This document shows positions 653 through 40,617 of a stretch of 64,000 nucleotides of DNA, one piece after another. Below the pieces are notes generated by a model, which searched no databases, was not told where the DNA came from, and saw only the letters and a program-made list of their open reading frames with translations. The stretch covers positions 1,120,001 to 1,184,000 of the forward strand of contig CAWHBU010000003.1 of assembly GCA_963827685.1 (NCBI GenBank), read 5' to 3'. This DNA comes from an uncultured delta proteobacterium. GTDB taxonomy: Bacteria > Desulfobacterota > BSN033 > UBA1163. The position numbers and the translations under genes are program-made. Position 1 is the first letter of the stretch, and every line of letters begins with the position of its first letter.

Positions 653-775
653 GATTGAGAAAGGGCTTCCCTTTTCTAAATCGGAATTTGGGGGTGATGC
701 TTCACCTGACAGGCAATGTCAAATATAACATTAACTCCTTCCTGAAGTAAAGTATGCACGATTTGGGGTGCTGTC

Positions 776-1597
776 CTAATTTGCCCTCTCAATTAAATCC
801 CTGATAGACCAAAGTTCCTTTGTCACGCCTGCCGCCATTGCTGGGCTTATCCTCAATGTGCTATGAATCCTCACAAAATTGTAATGGGTGAAATGAAGGG
901 CCACAGCCGCTTTCAGGTTTTCAAGCTTCTTGCTAAAGGCATTGGTTAAACGGGTAAACCGTCGCATTTGCATCCTGACAGTTAGGTTCTGCCTTTCCAC
1001 AAACGAAGTACAAATCTTATTCAAATTCGGATTTCCCGTAATATACTCTTTTAGGACGGAAACGACCCTTGGAGGACTGTATCTACCCGGCCCAATGGGT
1101 TCAGCCTCATAGGACTTTACGATCTGCCCATAATCAATGTCTGCACCAAAGACCGCTTCAACAGCTTCCACATAAGCTTTTAGCTTATCAGAACTTAATT
1201 GAATCCGATTGCTAAGACGGGATGATAAATCAGAAATAAAAGCCTGAGCGGTAGGCAGATCACGTTTTCCAACCCTATAAGTAGGGATTAATTTTGTTTC
1301 TGAATCAAGGGCAATGAAGGTGTAAAAATCGCCCACCTTATCAGGATCGTCATTTAAACCGACGTGGCGCTGTTTCTTTCCCACAAATGACCAGACTTCA
1401 TCAACTTCAATGTCCTTACAGGTTAAATTACGCATGGAGGTATCCATGATCTTTTCACAGGTATTGCCAACAGTAACCATAAGGCGCATGATAGTATCTT
1501 GATGAACTCCTGTCATTCGCTCAATAGAACGAATCGAAGACCCTTCAACTAACCCTCCAATGACCATCTCTTGTTTTTCGGTTTTTAAAATATTCAT
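776..1597 (-). CDS. IS1-family DDE transposase
   Basis: N-terminal HTH (GSSIRSIERMTGV), EVDEVWSFVGKK, ERQNLTVRMQMRRFTRLTNAFSKK; stop codon lies inside the TIR. Confidence 0.88.
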   Translation of the reverse strand: MNILKTEKQEMVIGGLVEGSSIRSIERMTGVHQDTIMRLMVTVGNTCEKIMDTSMRNLTCKDIEVDEVWSFVGKKQRHVGLNDDPDKVGDFYTFIALDSETKLIPTYRVGKRDLPTAQAFISDLSSRLSNRIQLSSDKLKAYVEAVEAVFGADIDYGQIVKSYEAEPIGPGRYSPPRVVSVLKEYITGNPNLNKICTSFVERQNLTVRMQMRRFTRLTNAFSKKLENLKAAVALHFTHYNFVRIHSTLRISPAMAAGVTKELWSIRDLIERAN

Positions 1598-1631
1598 TGC
1601 AATCCTCCCAAGAATTTGATATAAACCAACA

Positions 1632-1702
1632 TGGAGCGCAGGGGACTTGAACCCCTAACATCCGGGTGTAAATCCCAGTGTTGGCTGCCCATTCCGCGCC
1701 CC
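1632..1702 (-). ncRNA. tRNA-like element with intact acceptor, T and anticodon arms and a degenerate D arm
   Basis: GGGGCGC/GCGCTCC-A acceptor, AGGGG-TTCAAGT-CCCCT T arm, CTGGG-ATTTACA-CCCGG anticodon arm; no encoded CCA. Confidence 0.65.
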
Positions 1703-1777
1703 ACGAAGTTTTTGGGGAACAGGTTGCATAAAAGCCTATTCCCCTTTTATTTTGTCTTGTTATTTCAATCATGTAAG

Positions 1778-1808
1778 ATATTATAATAAATTTATTATAA
1801 TATGTCAA
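1778..1808 (-). promoter_or_regulatory. Consensus sigma70 promoter overlapped by a 26-bp perfect palindrome (putative operator)
   Basis: Minus strand TTGACA-17 bp-TATAAT (1808-1780); ATATTATAATAAATTTATTATAATAT at 1778-1803. Confidence 0.7.
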
Positions 1809-1849
1809 GAAAAAAATGCTTGCAAATATAATTTTTTTATTATATCTTT

Positions 1850-2227
1850 ATGAAGGAATGGACATTCAAGGTATTTATTGACGAAAACGGAGATTGCGAT
1901 TTTCTTATATGGAGAAAAGAGCTCTCCCCGAAAGCGCGTAAAAGAATGGATCAAATAATCGATCACATGGAAATTACAAAAGACTGGACTCAGACGGCTT
2001 ATTTTAGGCCATTAACGGGTTACCCCGGAATATGTGAAATCCGATTTATTGTATCAAACATACAGTATAGACCCTTAGGATGTCGTGGACCAGACCCAGG
2101 AATGTTTACTTTACTGGTTGGGGCAAAAGAACAGGGTGATGAATTTATACCAAAAGGTGCTCTGGATTTAGCTACCAGAAGACGTGCAATGGTTCTTACG
2201 GATAGGAGATATATCGATGACTATTAG
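1850..2227 (+). CDS. RelE/HigB (Gp49-like) type II toxin
   Basis: 125 aa; RPLTGYPGICEIRF...QYRPL pattern; toxin-first order overlapping an HTH gene. Confidence 0.7.
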   Translation: MKEWTFKVFIDENGDCDFLIWRKELSPKARKRMDQIIDHMEITKDWTQTAYFRPLTGYPGICEIRFIVSNIQYRPLGCRGPDPGMFTLLVGAKEQGDEFIPKGALDLATRRRAMVLTDRRYIDDY

Positions 2228-2849
2228 CGATAAACGTAAAAAAAGACTTTTTGAAGAATTGAAGAATAAAGAAGAGAGAGATGCTTATCTGTCATCCAGT
2301 GTTGATGTGGGCGTGGCTTTTCAGATCCGAGCACTACGAGAACAAAGAAACTGGAATCAAACAAAATTAGCCGACGAAGCGAAGATGCAACAAGAGAGAA
2401 TATCAACGCTTGAAAACCCAAGCCACTCTCCTACCTTAGCAACACTTAAAAAATTAGCCAGCGCATTTGATGTTGGGTTGATTGTTAGATTTGCTCCTAT
2501 AAGCGAATTAGTTAAATATGAATTAAATCTACACTCAAAGTCACTGGAAGTTCCAAGTTTTGAAGAAGAGGAATATTTTAAAGAAAAGCCAATATATGAA
2601 TCATCCAAAATTTTCCTGACTGCTAATATACAGGGGACAAGCCACACTCCTACTGTAGAAGCAACACTCTTGAAAGATCATTATTCCAAAGATGCCAGCG
2701 ACCAACCGGGTTCCAAAGATGTTTATTCTCAGTACATGGGGCGACCAAAGGTTGCCCAGATCTCTGATTACTTCCGCAAAAAAAAGCCTGAATCTGAGAA
2801 TGAGGAAAAGAGTTCTATCCAAGATAAGATATCAAATGTTGGAGGATAG
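2217..2849 (+). CDS. XRE-family HTH antitoxin (HigA-like) with a long C-terminal extension
   Basis: IRALREQRNWNQTKLADEAKMQQERISTLENP HTH; start chosen at the ATG overlapping the toxin end. Confidence 0.78.
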   Translation: MTISDKRKKRLFEELKNKEERDAYLSSSVDVGVAFQIRALREQRNWNQTKLADEAKMQQERISTLENPSHSPTLATLKKLASAFDVGLIVRFAPISELVKYELNLHSKSLEVPSFEEEEYFKEKPIYESSKIFLTANIQGTSHTPTVEATLLKDHYSKDASDQPGSKDVYSQYMGRPKVAQISDYFRKKKPESENEEKSSIQDKISNVGG

Positions 2850-2851
2850 CC

Positions 2852-3508
2852 ATGAAGTTATTATCCGTTAATCTTGCAAGAACTATTTTATTGGGTCCTA
2901 TGTCAGATATAAACCCACGGGGGGCAAGTCTTAATTCTATTTTATTCCCATTTTTGGTGAATACATACAAGTTTAAGAAAGTACCTTCTTTAACAGAAAT
3001 TCCCGATTTGTCGAAGGGGGTAAAGTTTGAACTCGGAGATTTTGATATTGGGGGTGATTATCCAATTGTTGTGAATCTCACCTTTTATAACGATGGTGTA
3101 ATTGCAGATAGCGGTTCATCTACTAATCATACCGATGCCTTTTTGGAAGACATGTATGCTAAGTTTTCCGAACTTTTCAAAATGCCTCCGCCTGAATCCA
3201 TAATAAGAAAAAGAGTCTACTTGAGCCAACTCTATGTATCTACGGATAGATCTTTAGAAATAATTAATCCAAAAATAAAACTGATCTCACAATATTTGTC
3301 TGAAACTGTTGAGGAAGGAAACGAACTTTTCGAGCTTGGCGGAATATCTTTTTGGCCCGATCAAATAAGTAAGGTTCCTCCTGCTCCATTTAGGTTTGAA
3401 AGGAAAATTGGTGCGCCTTTTTCCGAAAATAGATACTATTCGGTGGCTCCGCTTTCAACAGATAAACATCTTGAATTGCTTGATAAATTGGAGAGCATCC
3501 TATCTTAA
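2852..3508 (+). CDS. Hypothetical protein, third gene of the TA operon
   Basis: 218-aa ORF with GGAGG RBS, 2 nt after the antitoxin stop. Confidence 0.75.
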   Translation: MKLLSVNLARTILLGPMSDINPRGASLNSILFPFLVNTYKFKKVPSLTEIPDLSKGVKFELGDFDIGGDYPIVVNLTFYNDGVIADSGSSTNHTDAFLEDMYAKFSELFKMPPPESIIRKRVYLSQLYVSTDRSLEIINPKIKLISQYLSETVEEGNELFELGGISFWPDQISKVPPAPFRFERKIGAPFSENRYYSVAPLSTDKHLELLDKLESILS

Positions 3509-3528
3509 AACAAAATAAAAGCAAAACC

Positions 3529-3822
3529 GCAGAAACCTCCATTAAAGCACTAACAAAGGCTATTCTCGATCTCCACGGCTGTAAGGCAACGTGGATTAAA
3601 TCTACCCCAGTTAAAGAAGTATTTGAGGGCGAAACCGTTTGGGAAGGGGTTGTTCAGGTATTCGAGATTGACCACCCCAAATCTAAGCTTTGTTATGCGT
3701 GGTCTTATGGGTTGGATAAATCAAAGAAGAGGCGATTCTTTACGGTGCTGCATCAAGGGGTTGTTGATTCACCAGAAAAAGCGGTAAGGGCAGCGATTAT
3801 GAAAGAAGTAAAGTCGTCTTGA
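3529..3822 (+). pseudogene. About 97-aa open frame with no canonical start codon (hypothetical protein)
   Basis: AETSIKALTKAILDLHGCKATWIKSTPVKEVFEGETVWEGVVQVF...AVRAAIMKEVKSS*; in-frame stop at 3484-3486 and no ATG/GTG/TTG near the 5' end. Confidence 0.55.
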
Positions 3823-4487
3823 CAGTCCGTATAAGGCTTGATAGAATAAGACACTCTAATTAGCTTAGAATGATTCTTAATAGGTGAAGAAATCCGATGG
3901 CGGTCGGATTTCTTCTATTTTCATGATTTGGGATACTTCTAAATCATATCATAGGAGTATGCCCAAATGCAAGCCCTTTTTTATAATGAACAAAAAATAA
4001 GAGCAGGTAATTGTATGACTTTTGCACGAGTCCCATGTGAAACAAAAGGTAAAATTGATAAAGCTGGTAAGATTCTTGTGGAAGGAAATGGAAATTATGA
4101 TGAAGAATCTTTCGCTAAGGCAATAGATTTGGTTAATAGTTGGAGAGCTTGTCATGCTTATCCAATAAATACCTTTCAAGCTACACTTAGGGTAAAGCTG
4201 AAAAGTGGATTATATGGACGTAACCCAATAGCTGCACAAAGATTAAAACGAATGCCAACCATCATTGATAAGCTTCGACAATACCCTGCTATGCAACTAA
4301 CAACCATGCAGGATATCGGTGGGCTTAGGGCTATTCTTGATACGGTCAAGAATGTTTATAAATTGGCACAAGATTATCGAGATAATAAGGGACTCTTGCA
4401 TGAATTAGTTCAGGAGAAGGATTATATTGAGAACGCACGAGATGAAGATGGATATAGAAGTTTACACATGATTTATAAATACAAGAA

Positions 4488-5815
4488 CAGTGCTGTCCGG
4501 TTAAGAATTGAATAAAGACAATTGGTTACAGAAATCGGGTTTTTTAATATCATCAAAAAAACCTGAAAGCACCTGATAAATGGGGTTTTTCTCGAATAAA
4601 GTGATGCTCAAGATTTGCAGGATTTCGTTGAGACTTCGGTCGAGTTTCAATTCTTTCTTGATAATAGCGGGGAGAACATAAATACTTATTGCAATCCAGA
4701 TTTGGGTTTTCACTGCATTCTCGGAGGTTCCATAAAAGGATTTGATTCGAAGGTGCTGTTTGATCCACTTGAAGAAGAGTTCCACCTGCCAGCGGCATTT
4801 GTACAGTTGGGTAATGGTCAGAGGGTTGAGCATAAAATTGTTTGTCAGGAATACGAATCGTTTGGACGTTACGATATCGAAATAGCTGATCCGGCGAAGG
4901 GGATCGGGATATTCCTGGGAGGTCTTTGGGCCATTGAGAAGAATCGTTTGATCGCTTCGGAGTCCCGTGGTTTTGTCGACGAGGCGGTAGCTTCGACGAG
5001 TGCAATCGAGATTTCTCTTGGCGCGAATGATAAAGAAGGCTGAATGGAGGGCGAACACATACAGGCGGGCAAAATCGATATAGCCGCGATCCATAATGTA
5101 AAAAGAGCCAGGCTCTAAGATCAATTGGTCGAGGAGATTGACGTCGTGAACATTGCCTTCGGTAACGCGGATAAAGCAGGGGATACTGCCATGGAGGTCC
5201 ATCAGCGTATGGAGTTTGATGGCGCCTTTGCGTTTGCGAAAATGGGCCCAAGGAAAAAGCGAGAGACAGAGATCGATCGTCGTCGAATCGAAGGCATAGG
5301 CGGCTTGATCCAAGAGCACGCCGAAATCTTCTTTGGCATACAGGTACCTTGCTCTTCGGATCAGCACTTGAGCAAAATCGGCGTAGATCCGCCAGTCTCT
5401 GTTTTCGTTGGCTTCGGCCAGGGTGCTTCGAGCGACTTTGCTCCGAATCCCTACATGGTAGAGTTTGGACTGCAAGGCGCGCAAGCACGTTTCGGTCTCG
5501 CGAAGACTTTCTCGGTAAGTAAGCTGGGCGAAGGCCATGCAGAGAAATTGATCGAAACAGGAAAATCTTCGGACTCGGTAATTGCCTTGGTATCTTCGCA
5601 CACACTTGTTGAATTCGTGTTTGGGCAGAAAGTTTATGAGTTGTGAAAAGATCATTCGTCCACAGTGCATTGACCATTCCTTTCCACTCTGAGATGGAAG
5701 TATTATGGCCAATAAAAGCAGACGATCTGAAATCGAAAACGGTCATTGTTATGTTTATCCTATTAACATTGTTTAACATTGTCAGTTTTTAAAAATCCTT
5801 AACCGGACAGTACTG
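4488..5815 (-). mobile_element. IS4-family insertion sequence, 1328 bp
   Basis: 18-bp TIRs with one mismatch (CAGTGCTGTCCGGTTAAG / CTTAACCGGACAGTACTG); 9-bp TSD ATACAAGAA at 4479-4487 and 5816-5824. Confidence 0.95.
4501..5670 (-). CDS. IS4-family transposase (DUF4372 N-terminus plus DDE)
   Basis: DSTTIDL, MDRGYID, YKCRWQVELFFKWIKQHL (YREK-like motif). Confidence 0.93.
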   Translation of the reverse strand: MHCGRMIFSQLINFLPKHEFNKCVRRYQGNYRVRRFSCFDQFLCMAFAQLTYRESLRETETCLRALQSKLYHVGIRSKVARSTLAEANENRDWRIYADFAQVLIRRARYLYAKEDFGVLLDQAAYAFDSTTIDLCLSLFPWAHFRKRKGAIKLHTLMDLHGSIPCFIRVTEGNVHDVNLLDQLILEPGSFYIMDRGYIDFARLYVFALHSAFFIIRAKRNLDCTRRSYRLVDKTTGLRSDQTILLNGPKTSQEYPDPLRRISYFDIVTSKRFVFLTNNFMLNPLTITQLYKCRWQVELFFKWIKQHLRIKSFYGTSENAVKTQIWIAISIYVLPAIIKKELKLDRSLNEILQILSITLFEKNPIYQVLSGFFDDIKKPDFCNQLSLFNS

Positions 5816-6545
5816 ATACAAGAATAAGAAAGTACCCCAATATAATGGTCTACGATTAGAGCTTCAGATTCGTACAAAAAAACAACATGCATGGGCTACC
5901 GCAGTGGAAACAATGGGGACCTTCTTAGGGCAAGCATTGAAGTCTCGGCAAGGGGATCGAGAATGGATCAATTTCTTTGCGGTTACTTCAGCGGCTTTTG
6001 CACATCTGGAAAGAAGTCCCTTAATAGCTCGTTATAGCCACTTATCTCGTAAAGAAACTTTTTCAGCAGTTGCAGAAGCAGAGGCAAACTTAGGTGCATT
6101 TGAGAAGATGGGTGCGTTTTCTGCTGCCGCTGATCAAATAGTAAAGCATAAACATGAAAAAAAGTGGTTTTATCATCTGATTGAGTTAAACTCCTTAGAG
6201 AAAACAGTTAACGTCACACCATACGACCGTGATAGTTTTGAACAAGCCTTGAAGGATTACGCAGAGCTTGAAGCAGAAGCGGCTAAAGGCAAGAAGATCG
6301 AGCCAGTTTTGGTTTCGGCTGGCCCGATAGATAAACTTCAGCAGGCATATCCTAACTTCTTTCTTGATATCACTGAATTTATAAGTATTGTTAATGGAAT
6401 TGTTGCAGAAGGCAGAAACAAATAAAAGACTACAATTTCTTCAATCTCCCCGTATCACCAAGCTGACTTATTGCTTCCGAAATCAAATTAGGACAGCACC
6501 CGATTTGGTAATCAAACGAGATCTGCCCAGCACAGGAGAATATAG

Positions 6546-23950: not shown

Positions 23951-24044
23951 GGAAGTGGAAAGGTTCTGGTGGGCCTCCTGGACTTCAAATCCAGTGACGG
24001 GCAGAGATGTCCGTGGTGGGTTCGATTCCCATGCACTTCCGCCA
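23951..24044 (+). tRNA. selC: tRNA-Sec (TCA)
   Basis: GGAAGTG...CTGGACTTCAAATCCAG, long variable arm, GTTCGATTC, CACTTCCGCCA. Confidence 0.95.
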
Positions 24045-37860: not shown

Positions 37861-37970
37861 TGTTGATAGCCAGGCACCCCTGCGGCACACAAAGGGGATT
37901 ACTACCGCTGCTTCCTTCCGGACCTGACGGGGTTTGTAATCTTTTGTTGCGCAGGACCCGACTATCAACA
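37861..37970 (-). ncRNA. ffs: Signal recognition particle (4.5S) RNA
   Basis: TCAGGTCCGGAAGGAAGCAGC core in a long hairpin upstream of dnaX. Confidence 0.92.
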
Positions 37971-38995: not shown

Positions 38996-39088
38996 TGGCG
39001 GAGAGAGTGGGAGTCGAACCCACGATCCCGTTATTAGCGGGATACACGATTTCCAATCGTGCCCCTTCGGCCTCTCGGGCATCTCTCC
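38996..39088 (-). tRNA. tRNA-Ser (GGA)
   Basis: Anticodon arm CACGATTGGAAATCGTG, long variable arm, CCA end. Confidence 0.93.
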
Positions 39089-39216
39089 GTGATCTAAATA
39101 AGAGTTAAGAGTTCTTGGTTAGGAGTTCGGAGTAATTTTTAATTAAACCTTCAAAAAATATTTGGGTTTCCGGACTCTGAACTCCGAACTCATTACTAAA
39201 TTACTAACGTAGTGCA

Positions 39217-39312
39217 TGGCGGAGAGGGTGGGATGTGCTCAGTCGCTTCCCCCTGTACACCATGCGGTACAGGGCTTCGCTCCCTCCGCCTCCCCTTCGG
39301 GTCGCCGAACCC
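39217..39312 (-). pseudogene. Duplicated tRNA-Ser(CGA) 3' fragment with a 71-bp insert in the T-loop
   Basis: TGGCGGAGAGGGTGGGAT identical to 39392-39409, then the insert, then CGAACCC. Confidence 0.7.
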
Positions 39313-39391
39313 AATCCCGCTCTCGCGGAAGGGTTCTCATCCCATTGAGTATTTCTATAGCTGGCCTGCCAGCCGAAGCTTTAGCGTAGGC

Positions 39392-39480
39392 TGGCGGAGA
39401 GGGTGGGATTCGAACCCACGTCTCCTTTCGGGAGAACCGCTTTTCGAGAGCGGCGCCTTAAACCACTCGGCAACCTCTCC
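39392..39480 (-). tRNA. tRNA-Ser (CGA)
   Basis: Anticodon arm CCGCTCTCGAAAAGCGG, CCA end. Confidence 0.93.
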
Positions 39481-39573
39481 TCTTAAATAATAGTAACGAG
39501 TTATTAGTTCGGAGTTATGAGTAATTCTTCATCTCCGAACTCCGAACCCCCGACTCCAAACTTTTGTAATCCT

Positions 39574-40032
39574 TTATCTTCGTTCTCTAAAAAAAGCCTT
39601 TAAGATTTCACCGCACTCTTTTTCAAGAATACCTCGATCAACTCTTAGTTTGTGAGTTAAACCGTTATCGTTCAACAATTTAAACTTTGATTCAACTGCC
39701 CCAAATTTTGGCTCAGGTACTCCAAAGACCAACCTCGATATCCTGCCGTGAACCATTGCAGAAACACACATGGGGCAGGGTTCAGCCGTCACATACATCA
39801 CTGTTTCATTCAGTCGGTAATTTCTTAAAATCTCCCCTCCTTTTCGAAGGACCAGGATTTCTGCATGGGCAGTGGGATCACTAAGCTCAATACAACGATT
39901 ATGATCTTTTGCAAGCACCTGACCTCCTTTTAATAAAATGGCGCCCACTGGTATTTCCCCTCCCTGGCCAGCCTTCTCCGCTTCCTCCAGTGCCATTTTC
40001 ATATACCTTTCATCAGATTCCCTATCCTTCAT
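39574..40032 (-). CDS. tadA: tRNA adenosine(34) deaminase
   Basis: EIPVGA, DPTAHAE, EPCPMC. Confidence 0.92.
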   Translation of the reverse strand: MKDRESDERYMKMALEEAEKAGQGGEIPVGAILLKGGQVLAKDHNRCIELSDPTAHAEILVLRKGGEILRNYRLNETVMYVTAEPCPMCVSAMVHGRISRLVFGVPEPKFGAVESKFKLLNDNGLTHKLRVDRGILEKECGEILKAFFRERR

Positions 40033-40143
40033 TCTTGATCTCAGACAAGTCATCAATGACTGGCTGCCCTGAACTACGTTGAGTTCAGGGCCCCGCCCTG
40101 AATCTTTCGTGGTTCAGGGCTGCCATGTCCCCTAAGTGGTACA

Positions 40144-40220
40144 TGGCGCGCCCAGGGTGATTCGAACACCCGACCTGCGGATTCGTAGTCCGACGCTCTA
40201 TCCATCTGAGCTATGGGCGC
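40144..40220 (-). tRNA. tRNA-Arg (ACG)
   Basis: GCGCCCATAGCTCAG...CGGACTACGAATCCG...CCA. Confidence 0.94.
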
Positions 40221-40414
40221 ATTCTTCAATTGCGTATCGGCGAATGTGGATTGCGGAATGCAAAAAATACCCCCTCACCCTGACCCTCTCCCGCCGGGGG
40301 AGAGGGAAGATAAATAAGAAGGGTTCTCATGTCTCATTCAAAATATTGCTATATTTAACACTGGCTCCCTGAACTACGTTGAGTTCACGGCTGCCATGCA
40401 CCCTACGTGGTGCA

Positions 40415-40507
40415 TGGCGGAGAGAGAGGGATTCGAACCCTCGATCCCGTTTTAAGCGGGATACTCGCTTAGCAGGCGAGCCCCTTCGGCCTCTCGGGCA
40501 TCTCTCC
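40415..40507 (-). tRNA. tRNA-Ser (GCT)
   Basis: Anticodon arm CTCGCCTGCTAAGCGAG, CCA end. Confidence 0.93.
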
Positions 40508-40529
40508 GTTTCAAATAGTTATTATAGGA

Positions 40530-40617
40530 TGGCGGAGGGAGTAGGATTCGAACCCACGTCCCCTTTCGGAGAAGCGGTTTTCAAGACCGCCGCCTTAAAC
40601 CACTCGGCCATCCCTCC
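40530..40617 (-). tRNA. tRNA-Ser (TGA)
   Basis: Anticodon arm GCGGTCTTGAAAACCGC, CCA end. Confidence 0.93.

Follow-up and report, generated by a model that had tools for sequence, protein, structure and literature searches.

We analysed a stretch of 64,000 nucleotides (nt; hereafter the window) from the genome of an uncultured delta proteobacterium (assembly GCA_963827685.1, contig CAWHBU010000003.1, positions 1,120,001 to 1,184,000), in which a first-pass annotation had noted a tRNA-like RNA with alanine identity in the leader of a transposase gene. The gene encodes an IS1-like transposase of a 5.7-kb transposon, and comparison with related loci indicates that the RNA is the stripped-down member of an RNA family which has co-diversified with one clade of IS1-like transposases. 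The features of the RNA and of its transcription unit are as follows.

1808..1780, minus strand: sigma-70 promoter TTGACA-17-TATAAT; the tRNA-like RNA follows after about 70 nt
1778-1803: perfect 26-bp palindrome ATATTATAATAAATTTATTATAATAT, overlapping the promoter of the RNA/transposase transcript
1714-1744, minus strand: leader hairpin of 31 bp with a 10-bp stem, between the promoter and the tRNA-like RNA
1702..1632, minus strand: tRNA-like RNA, 71 nt (sequence parse, RF00005 and covariance model R2)
1702-1696 (5' strand) and 1639-1633 (3' strand), minus strand: acceptor stem, 7 bp, with G3:U70
1695-1679, minus strand: D-region, 17 nt including UGG, without a pairable 4-bp D stem
1678-1674 and 1666-1662, minus strand: anticodon-like stem, 5 bp including one U:G pair
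1673-1667, minus strand: anticodon-like loop AUUUACA, 7 nt, with U33, UUA (34-36) and C37-A38 at the usual positions
1661-1657, minus strand: variable region, 5 nt
1656-1652 and 1644-1640, minus strand: T stem, perfect 5 bp
1651-1645, minus strand: T loop UUCAAGU, positions 54-60 (family consensus UUCRANU)
1632, minus strand: discriminator A73; CCA is not encoded
1598..1631, minus strand: spacer, 34 nt, with the Shine-Dalgarno sequence GGGAGGA at about 1604-1610 before the transposase ATG
1597..776, minus strand: gene of the IS1-like DDE transposase, 273 amino acids (aa), with the ATG at 1597 and a TAG stop within the terminal inverted repeat

From 5' to 3' the RNA is parsed as GGGGCGC / 17 nt / CUGGG-AUUUACA-CCCGG / AUGUU / AGGGG-UUCAAGU-CCCCU / GCGCUCC / A. 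The 71-nt structure described in the first-pass annotation, with its 7-bp acceptor stem, G3:U70, A73, perfect T arm, AUUUACA loop and missing D stem, was confirmed on the minus strand. Its place in the transposase leader also held, the RNA ending 34 nt before the ATG on the same strand, and the upstream promoter, which had been called perfect, scored 12/12 against the consensus. The transposase matched PF03400 with 33.5 bits (cutoff 24.1) and NF033558 transpos_IS1 with 64.4 bits (below the cutoff of 100). Only one full-length copy of it was found in the host genome, and a multi-copy insertion sequence (IS) was rejected on this ground.

As a tRNA, the RNA is partly recognizable. It scored 25.0 bits over its full length (1-71; E = 0.0068 in a 551-nt search) against RF00005, below the gathering score of 29, and it was not called by ARAGORN, which predicted six genes in the window, none of them at 1702..1632; none of the seven Rfam matches obtained in the window at gathering thresholds lay at the RNA either. 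The fold of the single sequence had a z-score of -3.24, with 1 of 200 shuffles equally stable, and covariance model R2, built from 29 members of the family, gave 72.7 bits (E 5.4e-16). Taken alone, the RNA is a sub-threshold tRNA look-alike, and it is the comparative evidence that decides: homologous structures with compensatory changes lie 5' of homologous transposase genes, which argues for a tRNA-like RNA beyond chance. A copy of a host tRNA or transfer-messenger RNA (tmRNA) was rejected, because a BLAST search against the 49 host tRNAs and the tmRNA gave an 18-nt match to the T arm as the sole hit, and the RNA was unrelated in sequence to the three tRNA-Ala genes of the host. An open reading frame (ORF) overlaps the region in the window and in one related locus (L014), but a coding explanation was also rejected, since the stem substitutions are compensatory and the G:U pairs are strand-specific.

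Relatives of the RNA

Related loci (cited below by L numbers) were collected by a transposase-based search that was independent of the RNA. The set consisted of 24 genome loci, the best 80 of 580 confirmed metagenome loci and the window, 105 loci in all, and the transposase identities among related loci of 47-92% argue against recent copies of one sequence. Two covariance models, R1 from the first nine RNAs and R2 from 29, were run over all loci. With R2, family members scored 46-73 bits and two class iii copies (see below) 34.7 and 23 bits, and genuine tRNAs in the same DNA reached at most 40 bits. A tRNA-like gene with a UACA loop was found in 38 of the 105 loci, all of which encode related IS1-like transposases; the RNAs come from several bacterial phyla. 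A strict geometric scanner, which gave 29 matches against 6-11 in shuffles and control motifs, was excluded from these counts. According to their acceptor and T stems, D stem and placement, the RNAs fall into three classes.

Class i, 19 loci including the window: 7/5 acceptor/T stems, no D stem; same strand as the transposase gene, 21-70 nt ahead of its ATG
Class ii, 13 loci: 7/5 acceptor/T stems and a D stem of 4 bp; mostly upstream by 270-300 nt, separated from the transposase gene by a small divergent ORF and repeats of operator-like sequence
Class iii, 6 loci: 9/3 or 8/4 acceptor/T stems, G73 and a long variable arm; either strand, or downstream of the transposase gene

L046 and L081 have the RNA on the strand opposite to the transposase gene, and L075 has it downstream of the gene; this class-dependent placement and strand suggests a self-contained RNA unit. 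The clade-mates of class iii type (L021, L027, L046, L056, L075 and L089) have a long acceptor stem, a short T stem, a long variable arm and G73, with 9/3 or 8/4 forms seen in L027, L046, L056 and L075. Four class ii RNAs exceeded the RF00005 threshold (L081, 39.2; L023, 39.1; L061, 32.6; L110, 32.0 bits), and ARAGORN labelled eight relatives tRNA-Stop(tta) and one tRNA-Pyl(cta). The RNA of L036 scored 34.4 bits against the mascRNA family RF01684 (gathering threshold 42.5), and the Rfam tmRNA match of one relative was trivial (10.4 bits).

Other tRNA-like genes were also seen in the set. Four further loci carry odd tRNAs, namely UAU allo-like genes in L026 (220-304) and L098 (1273-1360), a UAG form with a long acceptor stem in L102 (1256-1349), and a class-II-type tRNA(UUA) with a normal A37 in L095 (737-821). 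A second G3:U70 tRNA-like gene stands in tandem in L038 (1293-1364 and 1387-1454), and L016 has a cargo tRNA (1641-1713) of 43.4 bits. At the class ii loci L023, L024, L061, L068, L078, L090, L101, L103 and L110, the small divergent ORF (62 aa in L090) lies between the RNA and the transposase gene, and two copies of the operator-like repeat surround a TTGAC promoter ahead of the latter.

The leader in front of the RNA also varies among loci. Compared with the window, the leader hairpin is flipped in L015 (2353-2383), L011 and L013, with the stem and loop reverse-complemented between the same flanks. A T-run stands beside the hairpin on its plus-strand side only, where TTTTATTTT follows, so that the hairpin resembles a one-way terminator for antisense transcripts. 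In L012 (2270-2398), L014, L016, L036, L037, L039, L040 and L053, a structured and conserved leader of about 140 nt, which had no Rfam family match, is found directly 5' of the tRNA-like RNA. It starts with a Shine-Dalgarno sequence and ATGAGAAGAG, forms two long hairpins, and has a loop AATCGCC complementary to TGGCGATT immediately before the tRNA-like RNA; changes on both sides were found in 23 of the 40 pairs predicted for leader and tRNA-like RNA together.

Conservation of sequence and structure

We examined 29 class i and class ii sequences with a parse by position only, anchored on the ends and the UACA motif and made without model fitting. G1:C72, G2:C71, G3:U70 and A73 were each present in 29/29, and the alanine identity noted earlier is therefore invariant in both classes. 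Acceptor pairs 4-7 were paired in 28-29 of the 29 sequences with four to seven pair types each, and the T stem was paired in 28-29/29 with covariation. In the anticodon-like stem the two central G:C pairs were formed in 26/29 each, and the other three pairs in about half of the sequences.

A second alignment (A7), of 29 sequences including class iii, was fitted to the model; a MAFFT alignment (A6) was set aside because its 5' ends were misregistered. In A7, 89.9% of the cells were paired versus 70.8% in shuffles, and changes on both sides occurred in 14 of the 17 pairs, the acceptor and T stems covarying strongly. None of 500 shuffles reached the observed values, although this significance is overstated since A7 was model-fitted and its sequences are related, and sliding the partner by 1-3 columns reduced pairing to 45-58%. 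By helix, pairing was 99.5% in the acceptor, 69.1% in the anticodon-like and 95.9% in the T stem, a picture with which the position-based parse agrees.

The loop follows the rule N32-Y33-N34-U35-A36-C37-A38, in which position 34 is mostly U, C in six sequences, A in two (L024 and L056) and G in one (L089). The alternative that the loop is a relic of a shifted valine UAC anticodon was not borne out, the 7-nt register being kept and U35-A36-C37-A38 staying constant while position 34 varies. C37 is conserved in the family, position 33 is C in some copies, and every class ii member has one or two mismatches in the anticodon stem. The G:U pair and the asymmetric loop indicate that selection acts on the transposase-sense strand of the RNA. 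These patterns show a conserved, structured RNA family in which the acceptor/T minihelix with its alanine identity set is under strict selection, and the anticodon arm is not maintained like that of a decoding tRNA.

Association with one transposase clade

A FastTree phylogeny was reconstructed from 96 uninterrupted transposases (alignment rows of 240-300 aa). It leaves out L015, L019, L036 and L076 and the partial loci L028-L031 and L034, of which L015, L036 and L076 carry class i RNAs. A single clade of 42 rows (local support 96) contains all 35 rows with the RNA, which is absent from the 54 remaining rows; mapping the RNA on the tree required far fewer changes than in shuffles. The search for tRNA-like folds upstream of homologous transposases, which the first-pass annotation had proposed, was thus positive (38/105 loci, 35/42 in the relevant clade), which speaks against a decayed captured tRNA. 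In a reverse search with R2, single copies were detected in 5 of 55 genomes from the host's order and in 3 of 151 genomes sampled from the phylum (the window's genome being counted both times). The transposase gene was directly downstream of all five evaluable matches in relatives' genomes, and a sixth match lay at a contig end.

This patchy, element-bound distribution is as expected for mobile DNA. The tree and the placement together show that the RNA travels with one transposase lineage, without being tied to a fixed position or orientation with respect to the gene.

The carrier transposon and its cargo

The borders of the transposon and the contents of its cargo are as follows.

767-6500: carrier transposon, 5.7 kb
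767..782, plus strand: terminal inverted repeat GGTGCTGTCCTAATTT, transposase end
6485..6500, minus strand: terminal inverted repeat, far end, identical 16/16
759..766 and 6501..6508: left and right copies of the 8-bp target-site duplication CGATTTGG
1850..2227, plus strand: weak Gp49/HigB-like toxin candidate (PF05973, 20.7 bits, below the cutoff of 23.9), divergent from the promoter
2217..2849, plus strand: HTH_3 (Xre-type) antitoxin candidate (Pfam)
3508..3822, plus strand: conserved companion protein X, about 100 aa, with the motif LHGC...VW.G.V.VF...YAW...AV.AAI
3967-4515: RelA_SpoT-domain ORF, abutting the second transposase gene on the other strand
4501..5712, minus strand: second, unrelated transposase (DUF4372 and DDE_Tnp_1), nested in the cargo

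The inverted repeats form a perfect 16/16 pair, where 1.18 matches with up to three mismatches were expected by chance. Related loci lose homology at ...AAATTAGGACA(G/C)(C/T)ACC, right after the transposase stop codon. The matched repeats and the flanking CGATTTGG show that the 5.7-kb transposon was inserted as a unit with the tRNA-like RNA in its interior. A remnant of an attachment (att) site at an island border, doubted in the first-pass annotation, was accordingly rejected, the RNA lying 930 nt within the inverted repeats. The carrier is a candidate member of the IS1 family, which has an IS1-type DDE transposase, terminal inverted repeats and target duplications of 8-9 bp: the PF03400 match lies above its cutoff and the transpos_IS1 match below, the inverted repeats have 16 bp and the duplication 8 bp, and the single ORF and the 4 kb of cargo are unlike IS1 itself.

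In the window and L015, the Gp49-like gene is divergent beside the promoter. At the corresponding position, L011 and L013 have a distant homologue, and the proteins encoded there had no Pfam match. The palindrome at 1778-1803 is identical in L011, L013 and L015 despite diverged flanks, and it is likely an operator shared with the divergent Gp49-like/HTH operon. The RelA_SpoT-domain ORF, which we take to be small alarmone synthetase-like and possibly of the toxin type that modifies tRNA ends, may have been truncated by the nested insertion. The cargo also holds a 218-aa ORF and one further ORF, both without an assigned function.

Protein X was found in 48 of the 105 loci, including clades without the RNA, and in many of them its gene overlaps the transposase stop codon. 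It is encoded directly 3' of the transposase gene in L020-L024, L056, L061, L068, L073, L075, L078, L080, L081, L085, L087, L088, L090, L092, L100, L101, L103, L107 and L112. In the window, no ATG, GTG or TTG occurs in its frame close to the conserved N-terminus. The AlphaFold model (predicted local distance difference test score 91) consists of a helix, four strands and a helix. No Pfam or NCBIfam family was matched, sequence matches to the PDB were marginal (E 0.42), and Foldseek gave no PDB match below E 0.5.

Two observations concern the surroundings of the element. Beside the insertion site, a sequence of about 43 nt (650-692) has four other near-identical copies in the genome (37-43 nt, 98-100%) and three weaker ones; a 23-nt inverted repeat (485-691), of which it makes up one arm, flanks a GC-rich segment and suggests a small element resembling repetitive extragenic palindromes or miniature inverted-repeat transposable elements. 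The host RNA genes in the window are a tRNA-Sec (23951-24044), a signal recognition particle RNA (37865-37963) and a cluster of four tRNA-Ser genes and one tRNA-Arg gene (38996-40617).

Comparison with known RNAs

The nearest known RNAs are the allo-tRNAs, irregular 8/4 and 9/3 tRNAs from soil and sediment metagenomes, among which (9/3) forms with a UUA anticodon were reported (Mukai et al. 2017, PMC5389517). In that study, G3:U70 allo-tRNAs whose native GCG or UUA anticodons had been changed to CUA were processed in Escherichia coli and inserted alanine, and abundant UAU allo-tRNAs were inactive in translation and were suggested to serve transposons or toxin-antitoxin systems. Some allo-tRNAs lay near toxin-antitoxin genes, and one overlapped the ORF that encodes a 'transposon-related protein' (PMC5389517). 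The window RNA shares with them its nature as an irregular bacterial tRNA, the G3:U70 pair and UUA anticodon of some allo-tRNAs (PMC5389517) and a position beside toxin-antitoxin and transposon genes, and the six clade-mates of class iii type named above fit the allo-tRNA description. It differs in having 7/5 stems rather than an 8/4 or 9/3 arrangement of the 12-bp acceptor branch, A73, a 5-nt variable region and no D stem, whereas allo-tRNAs have a long variable arm and carry a tetraloop on a long D stem. The text of Mukai et al. (PMC5389517) gives neither the UACA rule nor a linkage to an IS1-like clade nor a placement in a transposase leader, although its supplements may list such sequences. 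In our search for literature on tRNA-like or suppressor tRNAs of IS1 elements or transposase leaders, only this article and a 2020 review (PMC7609411) were relevant, with the same reservation about relatives in supplements, and the text of the literature found mentions a transposon association of irregular tRNAs just in passing.

The tRNA-like domain of tmRNA also combines a G3:U70 acceptor stem, alanine identity and a T arm with the lack of a D stem. The window RNA, however, is a continuous 71 nt with neither an mRNA-like module nor a tag reading frame; the canonical ssrA gene is elsewhere in the host genome (C6:205779-206133), and the ARAGORN tmRNA search that located it gave no call at the window RNA. 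mascRNA is a tRNA-like RNA released by RNase P and RNase Z, and like mascRNA and menRNA the window RNA has a tRNA-like fold within a longer transcript, in which cleavage would define the ends of both products. That family is eukaryotic, however, and the L036 score stays below its threshold; the family is not known to have an alanine-identity or loop conservation rule.

With a canonical tRNA-Ala, or an alanine-inserting suppressor, the window RNA shares G1:C72, G2:C71, G3:U70, A73, the T loop UUCAAGU, GG in the D loop and a 7-nt loop with U33, but it lacks a D stem and an encoded CCA, has C37 and a UUA anticodon, and scores below the Rfam threshold. The RNAs in the leaders of IS elements (the bridge or seeker RNA of IS110/IS1111, and RNA-OUT of IS10) are likewise conserved structured RNAs beside a recombinase gene within the element; IS110/IS1111 use DEDD chemistry, in contrast to the DDE IS1-like enzyme here, and the fold of the window RNA is a tRNA mimic. 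By comparison of these features, the window RNA fails as a canonical tRNA (score and D stem), as an allo-tRNA as defined and as a tmRNA, and conforms to the definition of an alanine-identity acceptor. The description that suits it best is that of a reduced relative of allo-tRNA-like genes.

Possible functions of the RNA

Our preferred interpretation, to which we give a probability of roughly one in two, is that of a functional transposon-encoded tRNA-like RNA gene, the product of which would be a tRNA mimic, borne by the element, that is processed and can probably be charged with alanine. Covariation and clade-wide linkage make a conserved functional RNA highly probable. Processing by RNase P appears probable, as does a primarily non-decoding role, and alanylation is plausible but could go either way. 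In the proposed mechanism, the consensus promoter would transcribe the RNA as the 5' leader of the transposase mRNA; the 34-nt gap has no room for another promoter, which argues for co-transcription in the window. The acceptor/T minihelix, together with the D-loop and T-loop elements, would allow an RNase P cut at the 5' side of the RNA, and a 3' endonuclease would free it from the transposase message. Addition of CCA and charging by alanyl-tRNA synthetase (AlaRS) would follow. Because G3:U70 and A73 suffice for AlaRS even on minihelices, the enzyme could charge the RNA. Processing would have two outcomes: it would define the 5' end of the transposase mRNA, and it would liberate an alanine-accepting tRNA mimic that acts in trans. 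The conserved NUACA loop of this mimic might be a recognition site for a putative partner rather than an efficient anticodon. The 69.1% pairing of the anticodon-like helix, C37, and C33 in some copies all argue against efficient decoding.

Several points weigh against this interpretation, beyond the overstated shuffle significance already mentioned. The RNA has no encoded CCA, in comparison with 46 of the 49 host tRNAs that encode it. The minimum-energy structure predicted for the sequence alone is rod-shaped and not a cloverleaf. The T loops are degenerate in two copies (L035 and L024). Seven of the 42 clade members (L020, L073, L080, L085, L092, L107 and L112) do not have the RNA in the fetched flanks, which for L112 include just 4 nt of upstream sequence. 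Protein X was considered as an RNA-specific partner and rejected, since it is not specific to the RNA-bearing clade and is without a structural relative.

A working nonsense suppressor is unlikely on the evidence of the loop and of the stop codons. Such an RNA would be charged with alanine and read UAA (and UAG by wobble), with CUA relatives reading UAG, and would provide stop read-through for the element. The 7-nt loop with U33 and UUA at 34-36 and the ARAGORN labels (eight tRNA-Stop(tta), one tRNA-Pyl(cta)) are as this explanation predicts, and so is the class-II-type tRNA(UUA) of L095 with its normal A37. AlaRS and seryl-tRNA synthetase (SerRS) both ignore the anticodon, and identity could be conferred by AlaRS in classes i and ii, the long variable arm and G73 of class iii being typical of SerRS substrates. 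The UUA (9/3) allo-tRNAs and the translation-competent G3:U70 variants of Mukai et al. (PMC5389517) are further points in its favour. However, decoding tRNAs have a purine at position 37, where the family keeps C; some copies have C33, and the window RNA is without a D stem. The anticodon stem is paired in the window but only to 69% in the family, every class ii member having one or two mismatches, and the copies with A34 (L024 and L056) or G34 (L089) would read Tyr codons. No target stop codon was found: the transposase stops are mixed over 100 loci (TAG 38, TGA 38, TAA 23), by which read-through of the transposase stop was discarded as a general explanation, and TGA is the transposase stop at many loci with a UUA form. 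In class i, the TAG is dictated by the inverted repeat, as is also the case in clades without the RNA, and full-length transposases contain no in-frame stops.

Equally improbable, in our judgement, is a purely cis-acting processing or insulation signal in the manner of mascRNA, in which RNase P cleavage would separate the transposase message and set its stability and the released RNA would have no role. This explanation suits class i, whose RNAs are always on the transposase strand at a distance of 21-70 nt from the ATG, too close for a separate promoter. The promoter upstream of the RNA, the mascRNA-like match in L036 and the cargo genes of L012, which read towards the RNA, fit it as well. 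Cleavage alone, however, requires neither G3:U70 and A73 (invariant in 29/29) nor a conserved UACA loop, and class ii and class iii RNAs lie at a distance of 140-420 nt, with a divergent gene in between, on the opposite strand or 3' of the transposase gene.

A decoy, antidote or sensor for the toxin-antitoxin cargo, for example an RNA that competes with a RelE/HigB-type toxin for stop codons in the A site, seems very unlikely and would fit the window's sub-clade only. The divergent Gp49-like and HTH genes at a shared palindromic promoter in the window and L015, with the distant homologue in L011 and L013, and the allo-tRNAs reported near toxin-antitoxin systems (Mukai et al., PMC5389517) speak for it. 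The toxin assignment is weak (20.7 bits, below the cutoff, and no Pfam match for the L011 and L013 proteins), and L012 of class i and the class ii loci have different neighbours. The toxin link thus appears to be local, and the constant partner over the 105 loci is the transposase and not a toxin-antitoxin pair. A decaying captured tRNA gene without function, suggested by scores below tRNA detection thresholds, the missing D stem and the degenerate T loops of a few relatives, is hardly credible in view of the covariation and invariant identity elements in more than 29 sequences from several phyla, the clade-wide retention and the lack of similarity to host tRNAs beyond the T arm.

Returning to the alanine-chargeable mimic, we may extend this reading with a more tentative scenario, which we consider possible but doubtful as a whole. 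The classes form an apparent reduction series that ends in the D-stem-less form fused to the transposase leader. This clade of IS1-like transposons could carry its own mimic, pared down from a complete irregular tRNA (allo-tRNA-like, with 9/3 stems or with 7/5 stems and a D arm) to a minimal acceptor/T minihelix and a UACA loop in the transposase leader. This RNA might couple transposase production to the tRNA-processing or charging state of the host, or weakly recode UAN codons, and would then represent a new class of transposon-encoded regulatory or recoding RNA.

Implications

The locus provides a defined carrier for an irregular tRNA: a transposon that has inverted repeats and a target duplication and encodes an IS1-like transposase and a conserved companion protein. 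The analysis also adds a clade-wide, two-way linkage between RNA and transposase, a sequence rule of an invariant alanine acceptor set combined with a NUACA loop, and the apparent reduction series. The role of irregular tRNAs, speculative since 2017, becomes a testable question on a compact element. If the RNA proves to be charged and trans-acting, this would show that mobile elements carry tRNA mimics, or weak recoding agents, from one phylum to another.

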